From: a virus
Taxonomy: Duplodnaviria; Heunggongvirae; Uroviricota; Caudoviricetes
Strand: one strand, 5' to 3'
Virus record (IMG/VR): IMGVR_UViG_2627854098_000004
Length of the DNA stretch: 51,192 nucleotides
Both the position numbers and the translations under genes were made by a program. Shown one piece after another: positions 1 to 51,192 of this stretch. Position 1 is the first letter of the stretch; the number at the start of each line of letters is the position of its first letter. The notes beneath the pieces are model-generated. The model made no database searches and was not told the DNA's origin. It saw only the letters and a program-made list of their open reading frames with translations.

Positions 1-219
1 TTATGCAGCGTTCTGGCGTGAGTTTCGAATAGTCGTTTCAATCCATTCATCAATCTCACTTTCCACAAAAGCGACACACCTCGGTCCTATTTTTACCCTG
101 TCTGGAAAGTTTCCTTCCTTAATACGCTCATATAAGGTCGTACGACTGAATCCCACTCGATTTAAAACATCAGGAACGCGGATAAATCGTTTTACGCTGG
201 TTTCACTATTTTTTTTCAT
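1..219 (-). CDS. AlpA-family phage/island transcriptional regulator (DNA-binding excision-type regulator)
   Basis: ORF 1..291 on the - strand; internal ATG at 219-217 preceded by AGAGGA; helix-turn-helix-like segment RFIRVPDVLNRVGFSRTTLYERIKEGNFP typical of the AlpA family; lies outside the prophage boundary. Confidence 0.65.
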   Translation of the reverse strand: MKKNSETSVKRFIRVPDVLNRVGFSRTTLYERIKEGNFPDRVKIGPRCVAFVESEIDEWIETTIRNSRQNAA

Positions 220-435
220 TGTCTGTCCTCTTTTGTTGTACGGAATCTCTATGAGATTTCGTTTTTCTCTATGTTGTTTCGACGAGAACAATGATAGCGA
301 TTTTGCTTATGACAATTTAGGGACGTTCAAAGAAGTTTTTTTTGAAAAATTCGAAGGGGCACGGATGGAAAGATAACGGTTAACACTGGATGCGATCACG
401 TTCGCACGGAGCGAACGTAACCCTTTTTACTTGGC

Positions 436-1272
436 TTATTTTTTCTTATTCCTGTCGTCTTCTACATGCTTTTCAACAGGGGAGTCTTTCAAGTAGTTGT
501 TTTCCATCATGTAATCTTCAAGCGACTTCAGATAGCTCGCATCCGTCAGAAAAGCCATTGCTAACGGGTAATCTGTAGCCTTGAGCATTCCTTCATCACG
601 ATCGTTGTCGCTGTCCTCGTGAAGCAGCGAGGAAATCAGTGAAAGCGGGATTTTAATGCCGTTATCTTCTCCCCAGAAGATCAGGTCCATCATCGGGATA
701 AGACGATATTCAATAATTTTTCTGAACGTGCTTTTGCCAAAACGATACTCTCTTGGAACTGGAGACGTCATCTTAAGCTGCCTCTTCCATTGAGGGATCA
801 ACACTTTCAGATGTTCAATGATCTCTTCGGTTGATGCTTCTTCCAGATGAATATCGGCAGTAATACGTGAAAGATTATTAAGGGATGTCTCTTTCAGATA
901 CTCGGACAGAAATTCAGACTGGCTTAACCCAGAGAGTTCAGGCGTGGCTTCGGTTAATGCCAGCGTTTTCGCATAAAATTGCGCGTGGCTTCGTGTCGTA
1001 GGGTTTACTGCGTAGGTTCTGGCAAGCTCATGTCCAAGGGTCGCGGTATCACCACTGAAAAAGATTTCGCCTCGCAAAATTTTATAGCGGTAGTCATCCA
1101 GCAAAAGTCTGTTCAGGGTCGGTATGGTATTCCGGCTCAACAACATTCTGTAAGCCAAGATGCGCCGCTCAACCTCAACATAAAACTGCTGTAAGGTGAG
1201 TTTCTCTATCGCCTCATAGCGTTCAACATCAAACCATGCTTCCAGTGCTTTCCTGATTTCACTTCTTTTCAT
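436..1272 (-). CDS. hypothetical island-associated protein (279 aa)
   Basis: ORF 436..1329; start ATG at 1272-1270 preceded by GGAGGATGG; no motif I can assign; adjacent to the AlpA-like gene. Confidence 0.5.
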   Translation of the reverse strand: MKRSEIRKALEAWFDVERYEAIEKLTLQQFYVEVERRILAYRMLLSRNTIPTLNRLLLDDYRYKILRGEIFFSGDTATLGHELARTYAVNPTTRSHAQFYAKTLALTEATPELSGLSQSEFLSEYLKETSLNNLSRITADIHLEEASTEEIIEHLKVLIPQWKRQLKMTSPVPREYRFGKSTFRKIIEYRLIPMMDLIFWGEDNGIKIPLSLISSLLHEDSDNDRDEGMLKATDYPLAMAFLTDASYLKSLEDYMMENNYLKDSPVEKHVEDDRNKKK

Positions 1273-1550
1273 CCATCCTCCAACAATCCATTTCCTTTGA
1301 TATATCTTCACAGGATCCGTTTGGAACAATTGAAGTTCAACTGTTTTGTCATCAGAGACGGGGGAATGGCTAAGTTGTTGTTAAGAGTGTGAACTCGAGA
1401 GCATAAAAGTGGATGCCCGACGCGCGGCAAAATGGTAAAAAACAGCATCAGTAGTAAGAAAAATTGAGCGAGAGAAAGGAATTTTAATGCAGGGATTTAT
1501 GCATGACAAAATCAAAAATGCTTTGTAATTGATTGATTTTGTTGAATGAT

Positions 1551-1612
1551 TGGCGGAGAGAGGGGGATTTGAACCCCCGGTAGAGTTGCCCCTACTCCGG
1601 TTTTCGAGACCG
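1551..1612 (-). repeat. 3' 62-nt fragment of tRNA-Ser(CGA) (serU-like); candidate prophage attachment-site core, distal (attR-side) copy
   Basis: Reverse complement reads CGGTCTCGAAAACCGGAGTAGGGGCAACTCTACCGGGGGTTCAAATCCCCCTCTCTCCGCCA: anticodon loop (CGA), long variable arm, T-arm and acceptor/CCA of a class II Ser tRNA; the 5' part of the tRNA is absent (sequence diverges at 1613). Confidence 0.7.
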
Positions 1613-2470
1613 ATGATACAGAGTCGAAAAATCAAAGAGTTAAAAAATTTTCTTGGAATAAATGTCTTAAAATCGTGCACGAAAAATCAATAAATTACAT
1701 AACATTAAAGAAGAATATTCCAAGCCTTCATGAGGTCACCACCTGTTTTCTGGTGTCATTCAGACGTGATTTGCCCCAGATTGGGAAAGCAAGCTTTTTT
1801 TTCTCAGCTTATTCCGTTTTGCCTGTGTGTTGAATAATTCCACTGCAGTTATATAAAATCGGTAACGGCTAGAAATCATTCAATACTCGCACTATCGGAA
1901 GTTCACCAGTCAACCGCGGTACGTTCTTGTATACAAGGTGCCGCGGTTTCCTTAATAATTTTTAGCAGTACTGTGTGAATGATGAGCGCCCTAAATCCAT
2001 GCATGATGCGTAGTGCCTGTTGTGCATCTTTCCGCGTCTCTTTTTACTAGACCAAAACCAATGATGCTTGCAATACCATTCCCGCCAGGCTCACAGAACA
2101 AATATCCCTTATCATCGACGCATAAGCGACACTAATCAGCAAAACCTAGGATGTATTGCTCTTGCCGGCACCTCCGGGAAAAATGTTTACTGCGCAATAA
2201 ATGAAAATAGCTCATCAACGTGCCGAGAATTAGCTATGTCTTGTGAGAAAAGAAACATCAATGATGCGTACAGCCGCACGAATACTTCTTATATTTTACT
2301 GTTAAACCGATACTTTTGTATCCTAACGAATACTTGACAAGATTATCTCCATCTTGGTAGATAAACCTCAGAAGGTTTTTGACAGGTGGATTTCTGTTCA
2401 GAAGGTCAATAAAGCTCTTCTCTATCATTAGTCAAATGTACAACATGGCTGTCTAAATAACGGAGTACTC

Positions 2471-3250
2471 ATGAATTTTACGTTTACTGACTCTGGATAC
2501 ACTGAAACAAATAAAAACAATCCCCCAATCATATTCGTTCATGGATTTTTCATGAATAATGAAATGTTCAAATACCAGTTTGACGAACTAAAAGAAAAAC
2601 ATAGAGTTGTTTGCATTAATGTTCGGGGATTCGATGCTCTCTCCGAAAAAATTGAGCCATTCTCGCTCTATGACATCGTTGATGACATTTTAAACGTCGC
2701 AGACTCACTACAACTGGATAAGTTTATTTTAGGTGGAATGTCGATGGGCGGATATATATCATTACGATTTGCCCTGTCACATTCAGAACGTTTGTCAGGG
2801 CTAATCCTTATGGCAACTCAGGCAGAGCAGGATCCGCCAGAAATCGCGTCCAGTTACATGGAGTTATGTAATGGATGGCAAGACCCAATCATAAAGGAAA
2901 ATATAATCAACTCATTATTACCCGTTTTTTTCGGAAATGATATCTCTGAAGCAGAGACATGGAGACAGGTATGGCTAGGCCATAAACCTGAAAATATCAT
3001 AAAGGCCATGAATGCAATGCTGGAGCGCGACGACATTTCAGAAAGAATCCAGATAATCACAATCCCCACGCTGATTATTCATGGTGCCAACGATATGGGG
3101 ATACCATTAGAGAAAGCAATTCAAATGCACAAAATGATTGCGCATTCTAAGCTTGAAGTCATTCCCGACGCAAATCATGCTCTAAATATCACTCATGCAA
3201 AGGAAGTAAATACAGCGATAAAAAACTGGCTGCAAAACAATCATATATAA
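2471..3250 (+). CDS. alpha/beta-fold hydrolase (moron, att-proximal)
   Basis: 259-aa ORF with RBS GGAG upstream; nucleophile elbow GGMSMGG (G-x-S-x-G) and candidate acid and His residues near the C-terminus; AT-rich compared with the lambda-like genes. Confidence 0.75.
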   Translation: MNFTFTDSGYTETNKNNPPIIFVHGFFMNNEMFKYQFDELKEKHRVVCINVRGFDALSEKIEPFSLYDIVDDILNVADSLQLDKFILGGMSMGGYISLRFALSHSERLSGLILMATQAEQDPPEIASSYMELCNGWQDPIIKENIINSLLPVFFGNDISEAETWRQVWLGHKPENIIKAMNAMLERDDISERIQIITIPTLIIHGANDMGIPLEKAIQMHKMIAHSKLEVIPDANHALNITHAKEVNTAIKNWLQNNHI

Positions 3251-3287
3251 AATTAATTATAACACATATTAATTTCTTAATTATATT

Positions 3288-3313
3288 ACGCCCGTAAAAC
3301 TGTAGCGGGCGTA
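3288..3313. terminator. hairpin between convergent genes (possible bidirectional terminator)
   Basis: 8-bp stem TACGCCCG/CGGGCGTA with a 10-nt loop, in the gap between the hydrolase (+) and the membrane-protein gene (-); flanking runs are A/T-rich but not clean U-tracts. Confidence 0.35.
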
Positions 3314-3451
3314 TGTTGTCACTCTGGTAGTGCCAGCCTCTCAATATCAGGTGCAGTTGATGTATCAACACGGTTCAGCAACACCCGATACTTTTTCCAG
3401 GCTTCCAGCAACGGGGTTTCTTCCTCCGTTGCATATACAGCTCACCTTTTT

Positions 3452-3745
3452 TCACCCACGATTAACCAACAGCCAGACCAGCAGACACGCCACCACCGGC
3501 ACAGCAAAATCCATCAGGCTTGCCACATCCCAAGCACGCGGATCAAAACCGCCCCACCACGGCATATTCATTCGCTTGCCATGCCCGAACATTTCAATCC
3601 AGCGATATTCTGCCTGGGTATGTTCACGCGCAATGAAGAACGTACAACCGGCTATCGCTCCGTAAGCCCAGTTTCCGGTAAAAAGACCAACCAGTATCTG
3701 CGCAGCCACAGCACAAAGTGCATGAAGTAAGGGGCTTATATCCAT
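3452..3745 (-). CDS. small membrane protein (97 aa, two predicted hydrophobic helices)
   Basis: ORF with strong RBS AGGAGG overlapping the stop of the upstream gene; hydrophobic N- and C-terminal segments; function unknown. Confidence 0.55.
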   Translation of the reverse strand: MDISPLLHALCAVAAQILVGLFTGNWAYGAIAGCTFFIAREHTQAEYRWIEMFGHGKRMNMPWWGGFDPRAWDVASLMDFAVPVVACLLVWLLVNRG

Positions 3746-3757
3746 TATTTCCTCCTT

Positions 3758-4036
3758 TCAGCTCCATTCCCGAAGCGGTGTTTCCAGCTCCACGACATAA
3801 TCAGAGAATACAGAAACATCAAACAAGTCATCAAGAATGCGAATGTTGACAAAATAACCATCATTCCGGATACAGACAGGTTCTCCCTCTTCTGTTACCC
3901 CTGTTTCTGTGTAGGTGAAACCAATTTCATCAACTAACAGTTTATTCTGGAGGTCTTCATCTTCCGCCCAGCCAAGAGATGACAGGAAGGCCTTAAACTG
4001 CAGTTTGTCATGAAACTTCAAAGTTAAATCTTTCAT
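3758..4036 (-). CDS. hypothetical protein (92 aa) immediately downstream of the side tail fibre gene
   Basis: ORF start overlaps the stf stop by 4 nt (translational coupling); acidic protein; sits where a tail-fibre assembly gene would be but does not look like lambda Tfa. Confidence 0.5.
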   Translation of the reverse strand: MKDLTLKFHDKLQFKAFLSSLGWAEDEDLQNKLLVDEIGFTYTETGVTEEGEPVCIRNDGYFVNIRILDDLFDVSVFSDYVVELETPLREWS

Positions 4037-6096
4037 ACGACCTCTTTTAATTGCCTGTCATTTAATTCTTTATGCCATATGCGGAAATTGCGAATATGGC
4101 CAAACAGATGTCGTTCTCCAGTATTCGTCTGCCCTCCAAATCGGATATTTTTATCAGCGGTCACGCCATTATATTCACAATAAACTTCATTAACCGCTTT
4201 ACCATTTGTCACCACATGAAAGTGACCATCAGCTTTTGCAATACATCCAAATGTGGTTTTCTCTGCAAATACATCTGTCGCTGCGCTATTAACATACGAG
4301 CCTGAAGGGTTTGACAGACTCATATATAACTTACCACTACCTCTGTTGACTGCTGCAATTGCTGATTGCCCGGTATTGGCTGCTGCTATATCCCACACGC
4401 GGGGTGCGGCGTTTGGTGCAATATCCCAGTTTTTATGAATCTCAAGTAAAAAAGTAAATGGTAACTTATAAAGATTATTTCTGGTGGGGATACTAACCAA
4501 ATCACTGGCTCTTGTCGTTGCGCTGCCTCCTGAAATAATAAATGATGATACACACGGCCCATTCTCTACTTGTGGGGTGGCAAGATAAATATAGTCACCA
4601 GATACTGTTGCCCCACCCTTCTCAGGAGAATACTGTATCTGAGAGCCTATTTTTAACTCACCATCAATTGCCTGAATCGTTGCCTCTGCAAAAATCCAGC
4701 CCGTGGTCTTATCCTTCCTGACTCGTGCCGTAATTCTGCCGGCAGCACCACCTGTCATATTAATTTCAAGCGTTTGCGTATCAATGTACGCATCGCCAAG
4801 AAAAGTTGTTGCACTTCCGTCATATTTATCAAACCGGATTCGCAACCTTACCTGCAGTTCTGTTTTAAAGCGACATGAGGTTGTCACGTATTTATTATCG
4901 CCTGAGACATCAACTGACTTTGTTGCAGCAATTGATGCCATATTAATAGCCGAAGTTTGCCCAACCAGAGAATCGTTGCAGACAAACTTTCCATAAGTAA
5001 AACCAAAACTATCCGTCCCGGTTTCGGGCACATCCATGTTTGATGACTTCCCCCAGCTGGCTGGACTTTCCGAATTGAGCATGTAGTTCGTTCTTTGTCC
5101 CTCAATAAGCAGGCCATCACACTCAAATCGCGGCTCATTAATTTCCGCCGTTTTCAGTTCGCCAGATTTGTTGATATATGTTGCCGTTGATGCGCGACTG
5201 AAATTAACCTGTTTATCACTGGCGACCTGAACCACATCGTCACCAATAGCTATTTTTTTATAGCCCGGAGAAAAACCCGCAATCATATCCAGTGAATCGT
5301 TAAACGGTATCCACACATCAGGCAGCGGCGGCACTATATTCGCATAGGGCTCTGCAGTCACTTCCGCTGCGGCTTCTGCGCGGTCTGCCGCCTTTTCAGC
5401 TCGTGTCGCTGCCGACAGAGCCTCATCCTTTTTCTGCCCGGCCTTTGTTGCGTCTGCTGCAGCCTCCCGCGCTTTTGTGGTGGCGACTCCGGCATTTTCA
5501 GCGGCTGACTCTGCATTACGGCGGGAAGCCTCTTCACTGTCTGCGGAGGCTTCTTCTGACGCACGGGCATTTGTCTCTGAACGTTCTGCCGCTGTTGCTG
5601 CGTTTTGTGCGGCTGTTTTTGAAGAAGCTGCCGCTTTCGCGCTGTTACCTGCATTCGTCTCTGATGTTTTCGCCGCGTTCCTGGACGATGCCGCTGCTGT
5701 TTCTGATTTCTTTGCTGCCGCTGCGCTCTGAGAGGCGGCTTCAGCGTTGCGTGCCACATCCTCCACCATTTCCTGAAAACGGCGCAATGCCTCCGGCATG
5801 ACATCATCTTCCGTCATGGCACCGAGAAAATCATTCAGCGTCCCCGGACTGGAACCTTCATAGACGGTAATGGTCCCAACATGTGATGGCTGAGAACCCT
5901 CAATCCACAGGATGACGCTGTACTGACCATACTCAACGTCCATACTGTAACGCCCGGCTTCATCAGGATTTTCAGAGGCCACCGTGTTCACCAGTACCGT
6001 GGTGCTGTTACGCTTTGCCTTCAGTTGAATAGTGCAGTTCTGTATTGGTTTTCCCGCACCATCTTTCAGCACACCTGAGATTTTTACTGCTGCCAT
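4033..6096 (-). CDS. stf: side tail fibre protein (Stf-like; lambda-type N-terminus, Ala/Ser-rich low-complexity shaft, distinct C-terminal domain)
   Basis: ORF 4033..6102; likely start ATG 6096-6094 (MAAVKISGVLKDG, as in lambda Stf) with GGAG upstream. Confidence 0.8.
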   Translation of the reverse strand: MAAVKISGVLKDGAGKPIQNCTIQLKAKRNSTTVLVNTVASENPDEAGRYSMDVEYGQYSVILWIEGSQPSHVGTITVYEGSSPGTLNDFLGAMTEDDVMPEALRRFQEMVEDVARNAEAASQSAAAAKKSETAAASSRNAAKTSETNAGNSAKAAASSKTAAQNAATAAERSETNARASEEASADSEEASRRNAESAAENAGVATTKAREAAADATKAGQKKDEALSAATRAEKAADRAEAAAEVTAEPYANIVPPLPDVWIPFNDSLDMIAGFSPGYKKIAIGDDVVQVASDKQVNFSRASTATYINKSGELKTAEINEPRFECDGLLIEGQRTNYMLNSESPASWGKSSNMDVPETGTDSFGFTYGKFVCNDSLVGQTSAINMASIAATKSVDVSGDNKYVTTSCRFKTELQVRLRIRFDKYDGSATTFLGDAYIDTQTLEINMTGGAAGRITARVRKDKTTGWIFAEATIQAIDGELKIGSQIQYSPEKGGATVSGDYIYLATPQVENGPCVSSFIISGGSATTRASDLVSIPTRNNLYKLPFTFLLEIHKNWDIAPNAAPRVWDIAAANTGQSAIAAVNRGSGKLYMSLSNPSGSYVNSAATDVFAEKTTFGCIAKADGHFHVVTNGKAVNEVYCEYNGVTADKNIRFGGQTNTGERHLFGHIRNFRIWHKELNDRQLKEVV

Positions 6097-26117: not shown

Positions 26118-26219
26118 TTTACGGATGCAATATTAAAAAAACAAAAAGTTATATTCGAGAAGTACCGTAACCGGCTCATTTAAACCGTCTGGTCTGTTTC
26201 CTCCGGCTCTACAAAAATA

Positions 26220-26897
26220 ATGTCCATCATTTTTAATGGACACTATCGTATGAAACACCGGACCTGGATCACTGAAGCTTTACGTCTTCACTTTGAAGAA
26301 CATTTACCCCGGGTTGTGGCCGGGCGTCGCCTGGGTGTACCAAAATCAACAGTTTGTAGTATGTTCGTGCGCTTTCGGAGAGCTGGCCTTTCGTGGCCTT
26401 TGCCCGCAGGCATGTCGGAGCAGGAACTTGATGCCTGCCTTTACGGACAATTTTCCACGGTACCAGTCGTACGTCCTGAAAGCACCGTTATATCCGAAGC
26501 CCCCGTGGTAAAAAAACGTCCCCGGCGGCCCAACTTCCCTTATGAGTTTAAAATCGCCTTAGTGGAGCAGTCACTGCAGCCCGGAGCCTGTGTGGCGCAG
26601 ATCGCCCGGGAAAACGGAATCAACGATAACCTGCTCTTCAACTGGCGCCATCAATACCGGAAAGGTGGCCTGCTGCCTTCCGGAAAAAATATGCCGGCAC
26701 TGCTTCCCGTGACGTTAACGCCGGAGCCGGATAATAAAATCCCGGCCCCCGCACAGGAACCAGAGCAGATAAATACACCGTCCGACAGTCTGTGTTGTGA
26801 GCTGGTTCTGCCGGCCGGAACTCTCAGGCTTAAAGGTAAACTGACGCCGGCGTTATTACAGACACTTATCCGCGAAATAAAAGGGAGCAGCCACTGA
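26220..26897 (+). CDS. IS66-family accessory protein TnpA (start uncertain)
   Basis: ORF has an IS66 orf1-like C-terminal part (PNFPYEFKIALVEQSL...LLFNWRHQYRKG); the N-terminal extension may not be translated. Confidence 0.6.
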   Translation: MSIIFNGHYRMKHRTWITEALRLHFEEHLPRVVAGRRLGVPKSTVCSMFVRFRRAGLSWPLPAGMSEQELDACLYGQFSTVPVVRPESTVISEAPVVKKRPRRPNFPYEFKIALVEQSLQPGACVAQIARENGINDNLLFNWRHQYRKGGLLPSGKNMPALLPVTLTPEPDNKIPAPAQEPEQINTPSDSLCCELVLPAGTLRLKGKLTPALLQTLIREIKGSSH

Positions 26898-27244
26898 TGA
26901 TATCTCTCCCTGCAGGTTCGCGTATCTGGCTGGTTGCAGGTATCACCGATATGCGAAATGGCTTTAACGGCCTGGCATCAAAAGTTCAGAACGTCCTGAA
27001 GGATGACCCGTTCTCCGGACACCTGTTCATCTTCCGCGGACGCCGGGGTGACCAGATAAAAGTGTTGTGGGCTGACAGTGACGGACTGTGCCTCTTCACC
27101 AAACGCCTGGAGCGGGGCCGCTTCGTCTGGCCAGTCACCCGTGACGGCAAGGTGCACCTTACTCCGGCTCAGTTATCCATGCTTCTTGAAGGTATCAACT
27201 GGAAGCACCCGAAACGAACGGAACGCGCTGGAATCCGCATATAA
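26897..27244 (+). CDS. IS66-family TnpB
   Basis: 115 aa; [27 protein letters not shown] signature. Confidence 0.85.
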   Translation: MISLPAGSRIWLVAGITDMRNGFNGLASKVQNVLKDDPFSGHLFIFRGRRGDQIKVLWADSDGLCLFTKRLERGRFVWPVTRDGKVHLTPAQLSMLLEGINWKHPKRTERAGIRI

Positions 27245-27263
27245 CCCGTTGTAAAGTGAGGAT

Positions 27264-28835
27264 ATGGACACCTCACTTGCTCATGAGAACGCCCGCCTGC
27301 GGGCACTGTTGCAGACGCAACAGGACACCATCCGCCAGATGGCTGAATACAACCGCCTGCTCTCACAGCGGGTGGCGGCTTATGCTTCCGAAATCAACCG
27401 GCTGAAGGCGCTGGTTGCGAAACTGCAACGTATGCAGTTCGGTAAAAGCTCAGAAAAACTTCGTGCAAAAACCGAACGGCAGATACAGGAAGCACAGGAG
27501 CGAATCAGCGCACTTCAGGAAGAAATGGCGGAAACGCTGGGTGAGCAATATGACCCGGTACTGCCATCCGCCCTGCGCCAGTCTTCAGCCCGTAAACCGT
27601 TACCGGCCTCACTTCCCCGTGAAACCCGGGTTATCCGGCCGGAAGAGGAATGCTGTCCTGCCTGTGGTGGTGAACTCAGTTCTCTGGGATGTGATGTGTC
27701 AGAGCAACTGGAGCTTATCAGCAGCGCCTTTAAGGTTATCGAAACACAACGTCCGAAACAGGCCTGTTGCCGGTGCGACCATATCGTGCAGGCACCAGTA
27801 CCTTCAAAACCCATTGCACGCAGTTATGCCGGAGCGGGGCTTCTGGCCCATGTTGTCACCGGGAAATATGCAGACCATCTGCCGTTATACCGCCAGTCAG
27901 AAATATACCGTCGTCAGGGAGTGGAGCTGAGCCGTGCCACACTGGGGCGCTGGACAGGTGCTGTTGCTGAACTGCTGGAGCCGCTGTATGACGTCCTGCG
28001 CCAGTATGTGCTGATGCCCGGTAAAGTCCATGCTGATGATATCCCCGTCCCGGTCCAGGAGCCGGGCAGCGGTAAAACCCGGACAGCCCGGCTGTGGGTC
28101 TACGTCCGTGATGACCGTAACGCCGGTTCACAGATGCCCCCGGCGGTCTGGTTCGCGTACAGTCCGGACCGGAAAGGTATCCATCCACAAAATCACCTGG
28201 CCGGTTACAGCGGTGTGCTTCAGGCCGATGCTTACGGTGGTTACCGGGCGTTATACGAATCCGGCAGAATAACGGAAGCCGCGTGTATGGCTCATGCCCG
28301 GAGAAAAATCCACGATGTGCATGCAAGAGCGCCCACCTACATCACCACGGAAGCCCTGCAGCGTATCGGTGAACTGTATGCCATCGAGGCAGAGGTCCGG
28401 GGCTGTTCAGCAGAACAGCGTCTGGCGGCAAGAAAAGCCAGAGCCGCGCCACTGATGCAGTCACTGTATGACTGGATACAGCAACAGATGAAAACACTGT
28501 CGCGTCACTCAGATACGGCAAAAGCGTTCGCATACCTGCTGAAACAGTGGGATGCACTGAACGTGTACTGCAGTAATGGCTGGGTGGAAATCGACAACAA
28601 CATCGCAGAGAACGCCTTACGGGGAGTGGCCGTAGGCCGGAAAAACTGGATGTTCGCGGGTTCCGACAGCGGTGGTGAACATGCGGCGGTGTTGTACTCG
28701 CTGATCGGCACATGCCGTCTGAACAATGTGGAGCCAGAAAAGTGGCTGCGTTACGTCATTGAACATATCCAGGACTGGCCGGCAAACCGGGTACGCGATC
28801 TGTTGCCCTGGAAAGTTGATCTGAGCTCTCAGTAA
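27264..28835 (+). CDS. IS66-family transposase TnpC
   Basis: 523 aa; zinc-ribbon CxxC...CxxC and IS66 transposase core. Confidence 0.85.
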
Positions 28836-28919
28836 ATATCAATACGGTTCTGACGAGTCGCTTACGAAGTACCGACACGATTTTCCCTGAAAAATTTTCA
28901 TAAATAGTGAAAAACCGCG

Positions 28920-29079: not shown

Positions 29080-29331
29080 ATGAAAATCAGAAATATTCTC
29101 GCTATCTCCCTTGCGACATCATCCTTCAGTTGCCTGGCATTTAAATCCTCGCCCAATGTGCTACCAGGACCAACGAATCAACTAACTGCGGTAGAAAGTA
29201 AAATTATCGGACATTTTTATGCCCCACACAGTACATTACCCGGAACAACCATCACAGGGACATGTGACGCCTCCCCCGTCCCGGGATGCACCTGTCCGTT
29301 TTGTACTATGCTGCGTAGCCAAAACCGATAA
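29080..29331 (+). CDS. small secreted Cys-rich protein (83 aa, signal peptide)
   Basis: ATG 29080 with AGAGG upstream; hydrophobic N-terminus MKIRNILAISLATSSFSCLAF; C-terminal CxC...CPFC. Confidence 0.4.
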   Translation: MKIRNILAISLATSSFSCLAFKSSPNVLPGPTNQLTAVESKIIGHFYAPHSTLPGTTITGTCDASPVPGCTCPFCTMLRSQNR

Positions 29332-41798: not shown

Positions 41799-41835
41799 GT
41801 AAGCGTGCAGCAAGAACCGTATTGACGGGGATGTG

Positions 41836-43374
41836 TTATTCAGTCGGCAGTGCTACGCGCCAGGGGAGCAGTTCGCCGACCCGGTTTATCGGCCAGTCGG
41901 CTATGACGTCAAGGACATAGCGGAGGTAGCTTTCTGGCTCCACTCCGTTCAGTTTGCACGTCCCGATCAGGCTGTACAGCAGCGCTCCCCGCTCTCCTCC
42001 ATGATCCGAACCGAAGAACAGGTAGTTTTTGCGGCCCAGACTGACCATCCGCAACGCATTTTCAGCGATGTTATTGTCCGCCTCAGCCCAGCCATCATCT
42101 GCATAGTACGTCAGCGCCGGCCACTGGTTCAGGGCGTATGCGAACGCTTTCGCCAGTTCTGAGTGTCGCGACAGGGTTTTCATCTTTTCACGCAGCCAGC
42201 TTTCCAGGGATTTCAGCAGCGGTTTCGTTTTCAACTGACGTTCGGCAAGGCGCTGCTCCGCCGTCATTCCCCTTATCTCTGCCTCGATGGCGTACAGTTC
42301 GCCGATCCGTTTCAGCGCTTCCTCCGTCAGGGCTGACGGGGTGCGAACGTGCACATCGTGGATTTTACGGCGGGCGTGAGCCCAACAGGCGGCTTCCGTT
42401 ATCCGGCCATCCCGGTACAGCTCGTTGAACCCGGCGTATGCATCCGCCTGCAGTACACCACTGAACCCCGCAAGATGGGTCTGCGGATGGATGCCTTTTC
42501 TGTCCGGGCTGTAAGCGAACCACACCGCCGGCGCCAGCGTTGACCCGGCGTTACGGTCGTCACGAACGTAGGTCCATAACCGCCCGGTCTTCGTTTTCTT
42601 ATTGCCTGGCAACAGCACCGGGACAGGCGTGTCATCAGCATGGAGCTTACCGTCAGTCAGCACATAGCCATGAAGCGCCTCTTCCAGCGGAGACAGCAGC
42701 CGGCAGCATGCATCCACCCAGCCCGACAGCAGTGAACGGCTCAGCTCCACACCTTGCCGGCCGTATATTTCTGACTGGCGATACAGCGGGGTGTGCTCTG
42801 CATACTTCGAGGTCAGCACGCGGGCCAGCAGCCCCGGTCCGGCGATACCCCGCTCGATGGGCCGCGAAGGTGCAGGTGCCTGCACGATGGCATCGCACTG
42901 AGTACAGGCATGTTTTTCCCGTACCGTCCGGATAACCCGGAAGGCGCTACGCATCAACTCCAGCTGTTCGGCGGTATCCTCGCCCAGATAGCTCAGTGAA
43001 CCGCCGCAGTTCGGGCAGCACGGCGCCGCAGGCAACAGTCGCTTTTCGTCACGGGGTAGTGATTCAGGGAACGGCTTACGGGTGCGGGTCTGACGCAACG
43101 GACGCTGTACTGCCGGGTCATACACCCTACCAGTCAGCGTATCGCTCTCTTTCTGAAGCCGGTTCAGATCGGCTTCCATTTGTGCGATACGGCGGGAGAC
43201 TTTTTCGGAACGACTGCCGAAGTTCATCCGGCGGAGTTTATCCAGCTGCGCCTGCAGATGGTCTATTTCGCGCTCCCGGTTGCTCAGCTTTTCCTGCAGG
43301 GCGTGGATCAGCGCTTCCTGTTCGGCCAGGCGCTGTTTCAGCAGGAAGATGTCGTCAGAAGAGATGTCGTTCAT
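41836..43374 (-). CDS. IS66-family transposase TnpC
   Basis: 512 aa; IS66 transposase with zinc-ribbon CxxC motifs. Confidence 0.85.
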
Positions 43375-43423
43375 AAGCCCGTATTTTACCGGGCTTATTC
43401 TGTGACAACCAGGATAAAGAGAT

Positions 43424-43771
43424 TTACAGCATGGTCAGGGAGGTCAGCAGCCGCTTAGGCTGTCGCCAGTCGATACCTTCCAGCAGCATCGCCAGCTGCG
43501 CCTGTGTAAGGAACACTTTGCCATCACGGGCTGACGGCCAGGCGAAGCGCCCACGCTCCAGCCGTTTGGTCAGGAGGCACAGTCCGTCACCGGTGGACCA
43601 CAGCAGTTTAACCTGACTGCCGCTGCGGCCCCGGAAAATGAAAACATGGCCGGACATGGGATCGTCTTTCAGCGCCGTCTGTACTTTCGCAGCCAGGCCG
43701 TTGAAGCCATTTCTCATATCAGTGATACCGGCAACCAGCCAAATTTTGGTCCCGGAAGGTAACGGGATCAT
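43424..43771 (-). CDS. IS66-family TnpB
   Basis: 115 aa; [27 protein letters not shown]. Confidence 0.85.
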
Positions 43772-44169
43772 CGCTTCAGTTCCTGTATCAGCAGAGTCAG
43801 GAGCTTTTCGCTGACATTGCCATTGAAGCGGAGCGTCCCGTGCCGGAACGTTACCTCACAGCTGATACTGAGGGTTTCCGGGTCCTCTGCGAGCGATTCT
43901 GGCTGTTCGGCAGCTGCATCGAGAGTCACAGGAAGTAGCTGGGGGCTCTCTGAAGAAGGTAATAGCAGCTTTCCCTCGCGCCATTGTTGTCGCCATTTGA
44001 ACAACAGATTGGCGTTAATGCCATTTTCAAGAGCAAGTTTTGAGATGGATATCCCGGGTTCACAGGAGGCAGCAACGAGCTGCTGTTTAAATTCGGGAGG
44101 ATAATTAGGGCAGCCTTTTCGCCTGCCGGGAGTCACATTTTTCTGCATATCTGACACTTTGGTTCCCAC
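43768..44169 (-). CDS. IS66-family TnpA
   Basis: 133 aa; ATGA-type overlap with tnpB. Confidence 0.8.
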   Translation of the reverse strand: MGTKVSDMQKNVTPGRRKGCPNYPPEFKQQLVAASCEPGISISKLALENGINANLLFKWRQQWREGKLLLPSSESPQLLPVTLDAAAEQPESLAEDPETLSISCEVTFRHGTLRFNGNVSEKLLTLLIQELKR

Positions 44170-44240
44170 TACTTATTTGGTGGACACCACTTTGTCTAAT
44201 TCGTCAGATTCTGACCAGACGGTTCAGGCTGTACGCTTAC

Positions 44241-49823: not shown

Positions 49824-50060
49824 ATGTCTCGACTAATCACTTTACAGGACTGGGCTAAAGAAGAATTTGGGGACTTAGCACCAAGTGAGCGAGTTCTGAA
49901 AAAATACGCGCAAGGGAAAATGATGGCCCCACCCGCTATAAAAGTTGGTCGCTACTGGATGATTGACCGAAATTCCCGTTTTGTAGGAACGCTTGCAGAA
50001 CCGCAACTCCCAATAAACGCAAACCCAAAACTCCAAAGGATAATCGCTGATGGCTGCTAG
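49824..50060 (+). CDS. xis: excisionase Xis
   Basis: 78 aa; RBS GGAGGA; overlaps the int start by 11 nt as in lambda. Confidence 0.8.
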   Translation: MSRLITLQDWAKEEFGDLAPSERVLKKYAQGKMMAPPAIKVGRYWMIDRNSRFVGTLAEPQLPINANPKLQRIIADGC

Positions 50061-51192
50061 ACCCCGATCTCACAAAATCTCTATACCCAATTTATATTGC
50101 AAATTAGATAAGCGAACCGGAAAGGTATATTGGCAATACAAACATCCACTATCCGGTCGTTTTCATAGCTTAGGAACTGATGAGAATGAAGCAAAACAAG
50201 TTGCTACTGAAGCAAATACCATTATTGCTGAACAACGTACCAGACAAATATTAAGCGTCAATGAGCGTCTGGAAAGAATGAAAGGCAGGCGCTCAGACAT
50301 TACGGTGACAGAATGGCTTGATAAATATATTTCTATCCAAGAGGACAGGCTGCAACATAATGAACTAAGACCCAACTCCTATCGGCAAAAAGGCAAACCC
50401 ATTCGTCTTTTCCGTGAGCATTGTGGAATGCAACACCTCAAGGATATTACCGCACTTGATATTGCCGAAATAATTGATGCTGTAAAGGCTGAAGGTCATA
50501 ACAGGATGGCGCAAGTCGTGAGAATGGTGTTGATCGACGTCTTCAAAGAAGCACAACACGCAGGACATGTTCCGCCAGGATTTAACCCAGCGCAGGCAAC
50601 AAAACAACCGCGAAATCGAGTAAACCGCCAAAGATTGTCACTGCCCGAATGGCAGGCAATATTTGACAGCGTAAGCAGACGGCAGCCCTATTTAAAATGC
50701 GGCATGCTACTTGCTCTTGTTACTGGACAACGTTTAGGCGATATCTGCAATTTGAAATTCTCTGATATATGGGACGACATGTTGCACATTACTCAGGAAA
50801 AAACCGGTTCAAAACTTGCTATTCCGCTTAACCTGAAATGCGATGCTCTGAATATTACCCTTCGTGAAGTTATATCTCAGTGCAGGGATGCTGTTGTTAG
50901 TAAATATCTGGTCCATTACCGTCACACTACCTCTCAAGCAAACAGAGGAGACCAGGTTTCTGCGAATACTCTGACAACGGCTTTTAAAAAGGCCCGGGAA
51001 AAATGTGGCATAAAATGGGAGCAAGGAACTGCGCCCACATTTCATGAGCAGCGATCTCTGTCAGAACGGTTATATCGGGAACAGGGTCTGGATACGCAAA
51101 AGTTGTTAGGCCATAAATCCAGAAAAATGACCGACCGATACAATGATGATCGTGGTAAAGACTGGATTATCGTAGATATCAAAACAGCATAG
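50050..51192 (+). CDS. int: lambda-family tyrosine integrase
   Basis: 380 aa; C-terminal catalytic region HEQRSLSERLY...LLGHKSRKMTDRYNDDRG parallels lambda Int HELRSLSARLY...LLGHKSDTMASQYRDDRG; ends at the window edge. Confidence 0.9.
   Translation: MAARPRSHKISIPNLYCKLDKRTGKVYWQYKHPLSGRFHSLGTDENEAKQVATEANTIIAEQRTRQILSVNERLERMKGRRSDITVTEWLDKYISIQEDRLQHNELRPNSYRQKGKPIRLFREHCGMQHLKDITALDIAEIIDAVKAEGHNRMAQVVRMVLIDVFKEAQHAGHVPPGFNPAQATKQPRNRVNRQRLSLPEWQAIFDSVSRRQPYLKCGMLLALVTGQRLGDICNLKFSDIWDDMLHITQEKTGSKLAIPLNLKCDALNITLREVISQCRDAVVSKYLVHYRHTTSQANRGDQVSANTLTTAFKKAREKCGIKWEQGTAPTFHEQRSLSERLYREQGLDTQKLLGHKSRKMTDRYNDDRGKDWIIVDIKTA

Follow-up and report, generated by a model that had tools for sequence, protein, structure and literature searches.

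The window analyzed here (51,192 nt in full) carries a piece of a tRNA-Ser gene near its left end and a phage integrase gene at its right edge, which raises the question of whether the two are the ends of one and the same element. It corresponds to the reverse complement of positions 4154088 to 4102897 in the record of IMT5155 (Escherichia coli APEC). The first-pass annotation had read the whole prophage in the window as a single tRNA-Ser phage, with the right-edge integrase abutting an intact tRNA-Ser and the 62-nt tRNA fragment serving as the distal repeat. We examined both ends of the window, the DNA beyond them, and the corresponding loci of other strains.

A displaced serU end at the left of the window

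On the minus strand, positions 1551 to 1612 read CGGTCTCGAAAACCGGAGTAGGGGCAACTCTACCGGGGGTTCAAATCCCCCTCTCTCCGCCA, which is identical at 62 of 62 positions to nucleotides 29 to 90 of K-12 serU, the gene for tRNA-Ser(CGA). The fragment extends from the 5′ strand of the anticodon stem exactly to the CCA, and the 28 nt where the 5′ part of the tRNA would stand are unrelated sequence, so the earlier description of the 3′ 62 nt of a tRNA-Ser(CGA) without its 5′ half is borne out. Chance cannot produce an exact match of 62 nt; the last 14 nt alone are expected 0.02 times in the window. The minus-strand placement of the fragment had previously been left unstated, and it means that the CCA end (position 1551) points to the left, into a genomic island described below. 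ARAGORN called no tRNA anywhere in the window, and an Rfam search of the window likewise returned no tRNA, with just chance-level or partial matches over the 62-mer (a plastid 3′ untranslated region family and the 3′ end of tmRNA). This silence is as expected for a tRNA fragment.

Two compensatory positions in the variable arm indicate which copy of the tRNA end is native. The 62-mer has A..T at this pair, as do the serU genes of K-12 and BEN2908, both of which are without a serU prophage, whereas the intact serU of IMT5155, which lies beside a phage integrase, has G..C. We therefore infer that the 3′ end of the intact gene is derived from a phage and that the 62-mer is native. The fragment had also been proposed to be an attachment repeat marking a prophage boundary, and two strains agree with this: the phage-only strain APEC O1 matches the window across the same junction, from position 1551 rightwards, and BEN2908, which has only the island, shows an identical serU 3′ end with the island flank. 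The 62-mer is thus the displaced native end of serU, the attR core left behind by a serU-targeting lambdoid phage, and a genuine integration scar.

The DNA to the left belongs to a serU island

Beyond the scar, an AlpA-family regulator and a hypothetical gene had been noted within positions 1 to 1550, and Pfam matches confirm both. The first (positions 1 to 219, minus strand; 72 amino acids) matches Phage_AlpA (PF05930; E = 9.5e-19) and is annotated as a helix-turn-helix regulator in IMT5155; judging from its family, it is probably the excision or directionality factor of the island. The second (positions 436 to 1272, minus strand) matches DUF6387 (PF19924; E = 2.8e-52) and is the last island gene on the tRNA side, a place that it also holds beside serU in island-only strains. 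Comparison with the flank in BEN2908 defines positions 1273 to 1550 as the noncoding, tRNA-proximal arm of the island. The 25 nt abutting the CCA in the window are identical to the flank of the intact serU in BEN2908, and a chimeric junction query that included window positions 1051 to 1550 matched this strain at 99.3% overall. The arm is missing from K-12 and APEC O1, where the CCA is followed by the native flank (CTTTATCAATG...).

Near the island integrase, searching for exact copies of the 62-mer gave no match. Short-word BLAST instead yielded a 14-nt core repeat, CCCTCTCTCCGCCA, which consists of the last 14 nt of serU and occupies positions 1551 to 1564 (minus strand) in the window. Its second copy lies at positions 4184435 to 4184448 of the IMT5155 record, 164 bp outside the start of the island integrase gene, and is directly followed by sequence with 95.9% identity over 461 nt to the native K-12 DNA downstream of serU. 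Among all loci fetched, the 14-mer was confined to serU 3′ ends and the island boundary. As the island core is so much shorter than that of the phage, the 62-mer doubles as the tRNA-side boundary of the island. The integrase itself is of the P4 type (domains Arm-DNA-bind_3, Phage_int_M, and Phage_integrase) and adjoins zinT. Searching leftwards for a second integrase and a further repeat copy was therefore successful, and the second integrative element that had been suspected at this tRNA locus is a 31.9-kb serU island, located at the serU 3′ end, with direct repeats of the tRNA end on either side, and equipped with a tyrosine integrase of its own and an AlpA-type gene.

The island shares its locus, its end genes (the AlpA-family helix-turn-helix gene and the DUF6387 gene), and its zinT-side integrase with the serU island of the B2 E. 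coli strains CFT073 and 536. A backbone of RepL, H-NS, MobQ, TraD, and PilV/pilin genes is common to the IMT5155 island and the tcpC-bearing island of CFSAN067215. The cargo in IMT5155 is unlike that of the tcpC island, as it includes a SMODS and SLATT gene pair, DotA/TraY, and an ISEc40 element, and the island is larger than the tcpC-bearing island of CFT073 and 536 (∼27 kb; Messerer et al. 2017, PMC5521745). The annotation of the IMT5155 island lists no tcpC, a gene that is present in CFSAN067215, so the IMT5155 version is a cargo variant of the island backbone.

These surroundings also bear on whether the scar arose in place. The 62-mer might be a fossil attachment junction within the mosaic right arm of the phage, imported along with it. 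In the free phage ev099, this arm indeed occurs together with the 62-mer and with 278 bp of the chromosomal sequence that lies downstream of serU, and HS13-1 has a prophage at a site other than serU with the arm and 15 nt of the core. In the window, however, the 62-mer leads into the serU island through the flank found at the intact serU of BEN2908, and the island ends with the 14-nt repeat, the native serU flank, and zinT. This order puts the 62-mer at the chromosomal serU locus. The A..T pair, moreover, is what a displaced host copy is expected to have. We regard import of a fossil junction as highly unlikely and retain the reading of the 62-mer as an in situ scar.

The right-hand integrase belongs to a prophage in icd

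At the opposite end, an excisionase gene (positions 49824 to 50060, plus strand; annotated as such, with a match to Exc, PF07825, E = 6.7e-6) is followed by a lambda-type integrase gene (positions 50050 to 51192, plus strand; Arm-DNA-bind_1, E = 1.8e-28, plus Phage_integrase). An intact tRNA-Ser had been predicted just past position 51192, as the target of this integrase, but icd stands there instead, convergent with the integrase gene and with 114 bp between their stop codons. A tRNA search over 20 kb of this right-hand region came up empty. The 3′ end of icd is part of a 215-nt repeat (96.3% identity), the second copy of which lies in inverted orientation at about positions 4909946 to 4910160 of the record. 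Annotation and single nucleotide polymorphism (SNP) alleles assign positions 3962 to 51192 to this icd-integrated lambdoid prophage, which comprises the tail fiber, Lom, J, tail, and head genes, two IS66 insertions, and the early region.

The attachment site resembles that of e14 in K-12 when judged by its position and not by the integrases: the duplication begins 164 nt before the icd stop, compared with 165 nt in the K-12 annotation of e14, a region in which intE is not adjacent to icd. In known icd elements (e14 and the ExPEC icd prophage that carries sitABCD), ycgX and bluR come after the displaced icd′ fragment, and they do so here as well. Unlike in those elements, the icd repeats of IMT5155 are inverted and lie ∼0.8 Mb apart, and sitABCD is parted from the integrase end. 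In E12053, which has the noninverted arrangement, the block of tail fiber, Lom, and J genes is linked to sitABCD and the icd′ fragment.

These observations decide against a single phage spanning the window. The position and polarity of the 62-mer do suit a distal repeat at the tail-fiber end of a lambdoid prophage, and exactly such an arrangement exists in noninverted strains such as CFSAN067215. Yet the window integrase neighbors icd and not a tRNA, it has a lambda arm-binding domain and is only 25% identical to the integrase beside the intact serU, and the icd repeat is the attachment duplication of the window prophage itself. The lambda-type integrase of the window did not make the 62-nt repeat. 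Barring misassembly of the record, the single-phage reading is refuted, and we give it next to no credence. The absence of a tRNA-Ser beside the integrase, which the first-pass annotation had named as fatal to its proposal, thus holds for the window integrase, whereas the idea of an attachment repeat stands, with a different phage as its source.

A serU-phage remnant and its distant partner

The source of the scar is still present in part. Similarity to the serU prophage of APEC O1 delimits a remnant right arm of the serU phage at positions 1613 to 3719, and window positions 1551 to 4000 are 99.7% identical to that prophage. The arm begins with a noncoding stretch next to the 62-mer and continues with a 40-amino-acid open reading frame annotated as "ferredoxin" (positions 2013 to 2135, plus strand), which had no Pfam match; an alpha/beta hydrolase cargo gene (positions 2471 to 3250, plus strand; Abhydrolase_1, E = 1e-27); a tail-fiber-assembly remnant (positions 3319 to 3432, minus strand); and a hypothetical gene lying mostly within the arm (positions 3452 to 3745, minus strand). 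The DNA of the serU phage in the window is limited to the ∼2.1 to 2.3 kb from position 1613 to approximately 3720 to 3960, and the remaining prophage is that of the icd phage.

The intact serU lies at record positions 29157 to 29246, ∼0.8 Mb from the 62-mer and inverted relative to it. It adjoins a DUF4224 gene and a different phage integrase, for which PGAP annotates a frameshift at the 3′ end. The prophage at this site (prophage B) reads, in order, icd′, sitABCD, tail genes, head genes, early genes, integrase, and serU. Lambdoid prophages integrated in serU (SerU-LTIIb, KU052038.1; APEC O1; CFSAN067215) have the same 62-nt partial tRNA-Ser at their tail-fiber ends, annotated as a 62-nt tRNA-Ser pseudogene at the corresponding place in SerU-LTIIb, and the noncoding arm beside it is the same or closely related. 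In noninverted strains with a serU prophage, the integrase is convergent with the intact serU. The window differs in that only the short arm is still attached to the scar, with the cognate integrase and serU far away. In CFSAN067215, the prophage has a directly oriented intact tRNA copy at its opposite end. No such copy lies at the far end of the window prophage, where icd stands, and the inversion mapped below accounts for its absence.

Crossover between two prophages inverted ∼765 kb

To locate the exchange, we aligned the window and prophage B with the serU phage of APEC O1 and the icd phage of E12053, which are relatives and not the true ancestors of the two parents. Informative SNPs change parentage between window positions 3719 and 3962, and they do so reciprocally in the window and prophage B. 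From approximately position 3300 to 3719, every position that tells the two types apart has the serU-phage allele of APEC O1 in the window, and from position 3962 to 4400, where the mapped stretch ends, the window has icd-phage alleles; the alleles of prophage B are the exact reverse. This defines a 243-bp interval of homologous crossover (positions 3720 to 3961), inside which the SNPs at 3860, 3871, and 3932 are private to the window. The two icd repeats lie on opposite strands, as do the two serU copies. Crossover between the serU prophage and the icd prophage inverted ∼765 kb, spanning the icd-serU interval of K-12. From the K-12 map, the inverted segment would include the terminus and dif.

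The IS66 copy at window positions 26167 to 28869 is 99.85% identical to a copy in prophage B and was considered as a crossover site. It was rejected, as the SNP map places the exchange elsewhere and as each insertion sequence occupies a different phage position, with natural gene order around it in both hybrids.

If contigs of the 2014 IMT5155 assembly had been mis-joined within tail genes that are 98% identical over ∼10 kb, the result could in principle mimic such an exchange. The window prophage and prophage B have two stretches in common, of 9.9 kb (97.9% identity) and 2.7 kb (96.5% identity), and repeats of this kind can mislead short-read scaffolding. Against this, the SNP switch is clean, reciprocal, and confined to the 243-bp interval, and the complete genomes of DE17 (from a duck in China) and VTB96815v (from a chicken in South Africa) have a left junction (window positions 1 to 2470) that is 100% identical to that of IMT5155, with the matching icd-integrase end again 51,186 bp away. 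For the reciprocal junction, the inspection covered IMT5155. An assembly artifact is very improbable on this evidence, and the inversion serves as a lineage marker for IMT5155-type O2:K1:H5 APEC strains.

Terminus-spanning inversions between homologous prophages are known in E. coli O157:H7 and Streptococcus pyogenes. The present case is like these in that inverted lambdoid prophages on opposite replichores, sharing tail genes, have swapped ends; it differs as a new, particular occurrence within the IMT5155 lineage of O2:K1:H5 APEC. In the IMT5155 genome paper, a text search brought up only a tail-fiber inversion and nothing on the one described here.

Site states and a proposed history

Comparison with strains that have other states of the serU site, including an empty one, supports the same junction points throughout: K-12 is empty, APEC O1 is phage-only, BEN2908 is island-only, and CFSAN067215 has both elements in tandem. 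Among 5,426 complete genomes, 339 had the island-only junction, 605 the phage-only junction, and 42 the tandem junction. The noninverted parental arrangements are represented at serU by CFSAN067215 and APEC O1 and at icd by the sitABCD-carrying phage of E12053. HS13-1 was dropped as a noninverted comparator, since its prophage lies at another site, near ssrA; it is evidence of mosaicism only.

Taking these population states together with the observed sequences, junctions, orientations, and reciprocal SNP switch, we consider the following model, as a whole, very likely to be correct. The serU island would already have been in the chromosome when a serU-targeting lambdoid phage integrated by recombination in the anticodon stem-loop part of the 62-nt core. 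The phage would have contributed its own tRNA 3′ end, keeping serU intact, and pushed the native 3′ end to the far end of the prophage together with the attached island. In a later step of this model, the serU prophage recombined with a related, oppositely oriented lambdoid prophage in icd, with the crossover just inside the tail-fiber region; the exchange turned around the ∼765 kb that span the terminus and gave each prophage an end of the other. The window hybrid reads from icd through the integrase, ∼47 kb of the icd phage, and the ∼2.1- to 2.3-kb serU-phage arm to the serU scar and the serU island, and the reciprocal hybrid ∼0.8 Mb away consists of the icd′ fragment, sitABCD, the serU phage, its integrase, and the intact serU. 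The order of island, phage, and inversion is suggested by the closest O2:K1:H5 relatives of IMT5155, which are island-only, as one genome cannot prove an order. BEN2908 and APEC E19035 are the nearest of the island-only relatives.

Scar, island, and inversion are all events of ordinary, known kinds. Their value here is mainly practical: the window joins a two-phage hybrid to the edge of an island, and prophage or island callers, as well as human readers, that pair the end integrase with the tRNA fragment would draw the wrong element. The locus also offers a clean, base-resolved case of an icd phage, a serU phage, and a serU island reshaping one chromosome. Because each hybrid has mismatched ends, including the arm with the sitABCD iron/manganese transporter, neither should now be able to excise precisely, and both are probably locked in place. 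The icd integrase and excisionase genes appear intact, and the icd attachment sites are inverted and ∼0.8 Mb apart; Int and Xis acting on these sites might conceivably flip the segment back, as a reversible switch that re-pairs the prophage ends, though we consider this a very long shot.

A serU fragment and an icd-site integrase bound the prophage

Window positions 1 to 2470 match positions 4154088 to 4151619 (reverse strand) of the Escherichia coli APEC IMT5155 record (NZ_CP005930.1) at 100% identity. Strains DE17 and VTB96815v are likewise 100% identical over this stretch, and no more than these three genomes have the exact junction. On the minus strand, window positions 1612 to 1551 read CGGTCTCGAAAACCGGAGTAGGGGCAACTCTACCGGGGGTTCAAATCCCCCTCTCTCCGCCA, which is identical (62/62) to the last 62 nt of K-12 serU, the gene for tRNA-Ser(CGA). 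The match runs from the 5′ strand of the anticodon stem to CCA, the 28 nt upstream of it bear no relation to serU, and ARAGORN detected no tRNA in the window. The 62-mer ends at CCA and lacks the 5′ half, as the first-pass annotation had described it. It is a nonfunctional tRNA fragment, and nothing pointed to its expression. Structurally, it matters as the attR core of a serU phage, with its last 14 nt forming the tRNA-side core of an island. The AlpA-family gene and the additional ORF reported to the left of the fragment were also recovered, the former encoding an HTH protein (PF05930; E = 9.5e-19) and the latter a DUF6387 protein in a Pfam search.

The integrase at the right edge (window positions 50050 to 51192) had been taken as the partner of the 62-mer, with an intact tRNA-Ser expected just past position 51192, and neither expectation held. 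The window ends with the stop codon of this gene (record position 4102897), which is convergent with icd, the two stop codons lying 114 bp apart. Past icd, the gene order is rluE, nudJ, mnmA, and phoPQ, and ARAGORN found no tRNA in the DNA beyond the edge. The arm-binding domain of the integrase is of the lambda type (PF09003), and the gene is preceded by one for an Exc-family excisionase. The last 164 nt of icd and 51 nt beyond have a second copy on the opposite strand (around record positions 4909946 to 4910160; 96.3% identity), annotated as an icd pseudogene fragment and adjoining ycgX, bluR, and bluF. Integration at icd is textbook knowledge from e14 and agrees with the K-12 annotation, where e14 begins 165 nt before the icd stop codon, nearly the same position as the 164 nt seen here (≤1 nt apart). 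Together, the adjoining icd gene, the lambda-type domain, and the icd repeat at the e14 position identify this as an icd-site integrase.

The intact serU gene carries a phage-donated 3′ end

Intact serU lies at record positions 29157 to 29246, between mtfA/asnT and another lambdoid prophage (prophage B), in inverted orientation relative to the window fragment. The 62-mer is an attachment repeat, as first proposed, but its intact counterpart is not at the right window edge. A DUF4224 gene and the integrase gene of prophage B abut serU. PGAP annotates a 3′ frameshift in this integrase, leaving a 341-aa ORF with the catalytic domain, and it is only 25% identical to the window integrase.

Over its 3′ 62 nt, intact serU departs from the fragment at two sites that form a pair in the variable arm and read G..C rather than A..T. 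The A..T pair is also present in K-12 serU and in the serU gene of BEN2908, a strain that carries the island only. A phage that integrates into a tRNA gene brings a 3′ end of its own and pushes the native one to the opposite side of the element; the pattern observed here is the classic signature of this process. The variable-arm differences in intact serU also place the integrative crossover within the first 19 nt of the core, in the anticodon stem-loop part.

Two reciprocal hybrid prophages flank an inversion

Prophage B spans the record origin, and its far end contains tail genes, tail fibers, sitABCD, a hypothetical gene, and an icd′ fragment. IMT5155 therefore carries two hybrids, icd-int...serU′ (the window) and icd′...int-serU (prophage B), with both pairs of attachment repeats (icd and serU) inverted. 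Beyond the far side of the island, zinT is followed by the fli genes, the reverse of the K-12 order. Noninverted arrangements are seen in CFSAN067215 (zinT, island, serU′ fragment, lambdoid prophage, integrase, serU, and mtfA), in APEC O1 (zinT, native flank, serU′ fragment, the same ferredoxin-annotated ORF and alpha/beta hydrolase cargo, and tail fibers), and in E12053 (icd′, sitABCD, window-type tail fiber, Lom, and J).

Homology between the prophages of IMT5155 covers 2.7 kb (96.5% identity) and 9.9 kb (97.9% identity). We mapped the crossover with a four-way alignment in which the window and prophage B were set against the serU phage of APEC O1 and the icd phage of E12053. The window has the serU-phage alleles, and prophage B the icd-phage alleles, as far as window position 3719, and from position 3962 the assignment is exactly reversed. 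This reciprocal switch places the crossover within window positions 3720 to 3961. The inverted segment extends from about record position 4,150,250 to about 4,916,000 (roughly 765 kb); on the K-12 map, it corresponds to the icd-to-serU interval and would include dif. Misassembly of this region is unlikely because DE17 (duck, China) and VTB96815v (chicken, South Africa) have the same 100%-identical left junction, with the icd-integrase end 51,186 bp from it in both.

An IS66-family insertion at window positions 26167 to 28869 is 99.85% identical to a differently placed copy in prophage B. The two copies were rejected as crossover sites, as each is placed differently in its phage and the genes around it remain in their natural order.

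Homologous prophages have given rise to terminus-spanning inversions in E. coli O157:H7 and in other species. Although such events are known, the one in IMT5155 appears to be undescribed so far, since a text search of its genome paper found the word "inversion" solely in connection with tail-fiber switching. The case is useful mainly as a warning when prophages are delimited and as a marker of the lineage.

The inversion left each hybrid with one icd-type and one serU-type end, and with ends mismatched in this way, integrase-mediated excision should be unable to regenerate either phage or either empty site. The window prophage looks defective regardless of the inversion because its J, tape measure, and C40 peptidase genes are annotated as frameshifted and a second IS66-family insertion (window positions ∼41800 to 44200) truncates the N antiterminator gene. 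A subthreshold Rfam match to IS009 (window positions 3356 to 3454, minus strand; 68.6 bits versus a gathering score of 117; E = 1.3e-14) spans the model ends only and lies in a tail-fiber-assembly remnant.

A serU island lies to the left of the prophage

Upstream of window position 1, the record contains hypothetical genes and a SMODS and SLATT pair, followed by H-NS, DUF4756, RepL, ISEc40, DotA/TraY, a MobQ relaxase, TraD, type IV pilin, and PilV. The last gene of the series encodes a tyrosine integrase (record positions 4183020 to 4184270) whose domains are those of the P4 type (Arm-DNA-bind_3, Phage_int_M, and the catalytic domain), and zinT, msrQ, and msrP come next. The last 14 nt of serU, CCCTCTCTCCGCCA, are repeated 164 bp outside the start of this integrase gene in the same orientation as the 62-mer, and the second copy is followed by the K-12 serU downstream sequence (CTTTATCAATGACTTATC...; 95.9% identity over 461 nt). 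In the full set of fetched loci, this 14-mer was confined to serU 3′ ends and the island boundary; its chance expectation in the window is 0.02. The repeat followed by the native serU flank identifies the DNA leftwards from window position 1550 as an island of 31,896 bp, with 14 nt of the serU end directly repeated at its two boundaries. A second integrative element at the same tRNA locus had been anticipated, and both the second integrase and the additional repeat copy sought leftwards were found. The first-pass annotation was thus correct about the attachment repeat and the tandem island and mistaken about which integrase is the partner and where the intact tRNA gene lies.

This is the serU island known from B2 strains, which was described without mobilization or transfer genes (PMC5521745). 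In contrast, the IMT5155 island (fetched loci L001, 1 to 20000, and L003, 1 to 12300) encodes the MobQ relaxase, TraD, and DotA/TraY, together with RepL, type IV pilin, and a PilV shufflon adhesin; its SMODS nucleotidyltransferase and SLATT pair is defense-like. The CFSAN067215 island has the same backbone and includes tcpC, whereas no tcpC is annotated in IMT5155. Both 14-nt repeats are still direct and on the same side of the inversion, and excision of the island could be possible in principle. In K-12, yodB is located between zinT and serU. The ∼670-bp zinT-serU flank has no annotated yodB in IMT5155 (L003, 12450 to 13119), APEC O1 (L011, 5270 to 5938), or CFSAN067215 (L006, 4848 to 5516), and the K-12 homology of this flank ends ∼447 nt downstream of serU.

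The best matches to the island end (99.3%) are the O2:K1:H5 APEC strains BEN2908 and E19035, in which the island adjoins an intact, native-type serU gene. As these closest relatives are island only, the likely order of events is that the island arrived first, the phage then integrated into intact serU, and the inversion followed. Among 5,426 complete E. coli genomes, the island-only junction was found in 339, the phage-only junction in 605, and the tandem junction (island plus phage) in 42.

Related fragments and cargo in other phages

Known serU-integrated lambdoid prophages have a 62-nt pseudo-tRNA-Ser at the tail-fiber end that is already in databases, and the fragment itself is annotated in phage SerU-LTIIb. 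In phage ev099 (LR597635.1; L017, 2723 to 3257), the stretch between the integrase and the tail fibers combines 278 bp of the E. coli chromosome, derived from the downstream side of serU, with the 62-nt serU fragment and the same noncoding arm. This junction looks like a fossil attR captured in a phage genome, as by imprecise excision.

In several prophages, a 40-aa ORF annotated by PGAP as ferredoxin (window positions 2013 to 2135, plus strand), which had no match in a Pfam search, accompanies the gene for the alpha/beta hydrolase cargo. The same hydrolase cargo arm (99.9% identity) is found in HS13-1 (NZ_CP026491.1; L012, 7092 to 9497), in a lambdoid prophage near ssrA, a non-serU site. There, the match to the serU core stops after its first 15 nt, CGGTCTCGAAAACCG, beyond which the sequences diverge. 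The presence of the arm at a non-serU site shows that it moves between phages with different integration sites.
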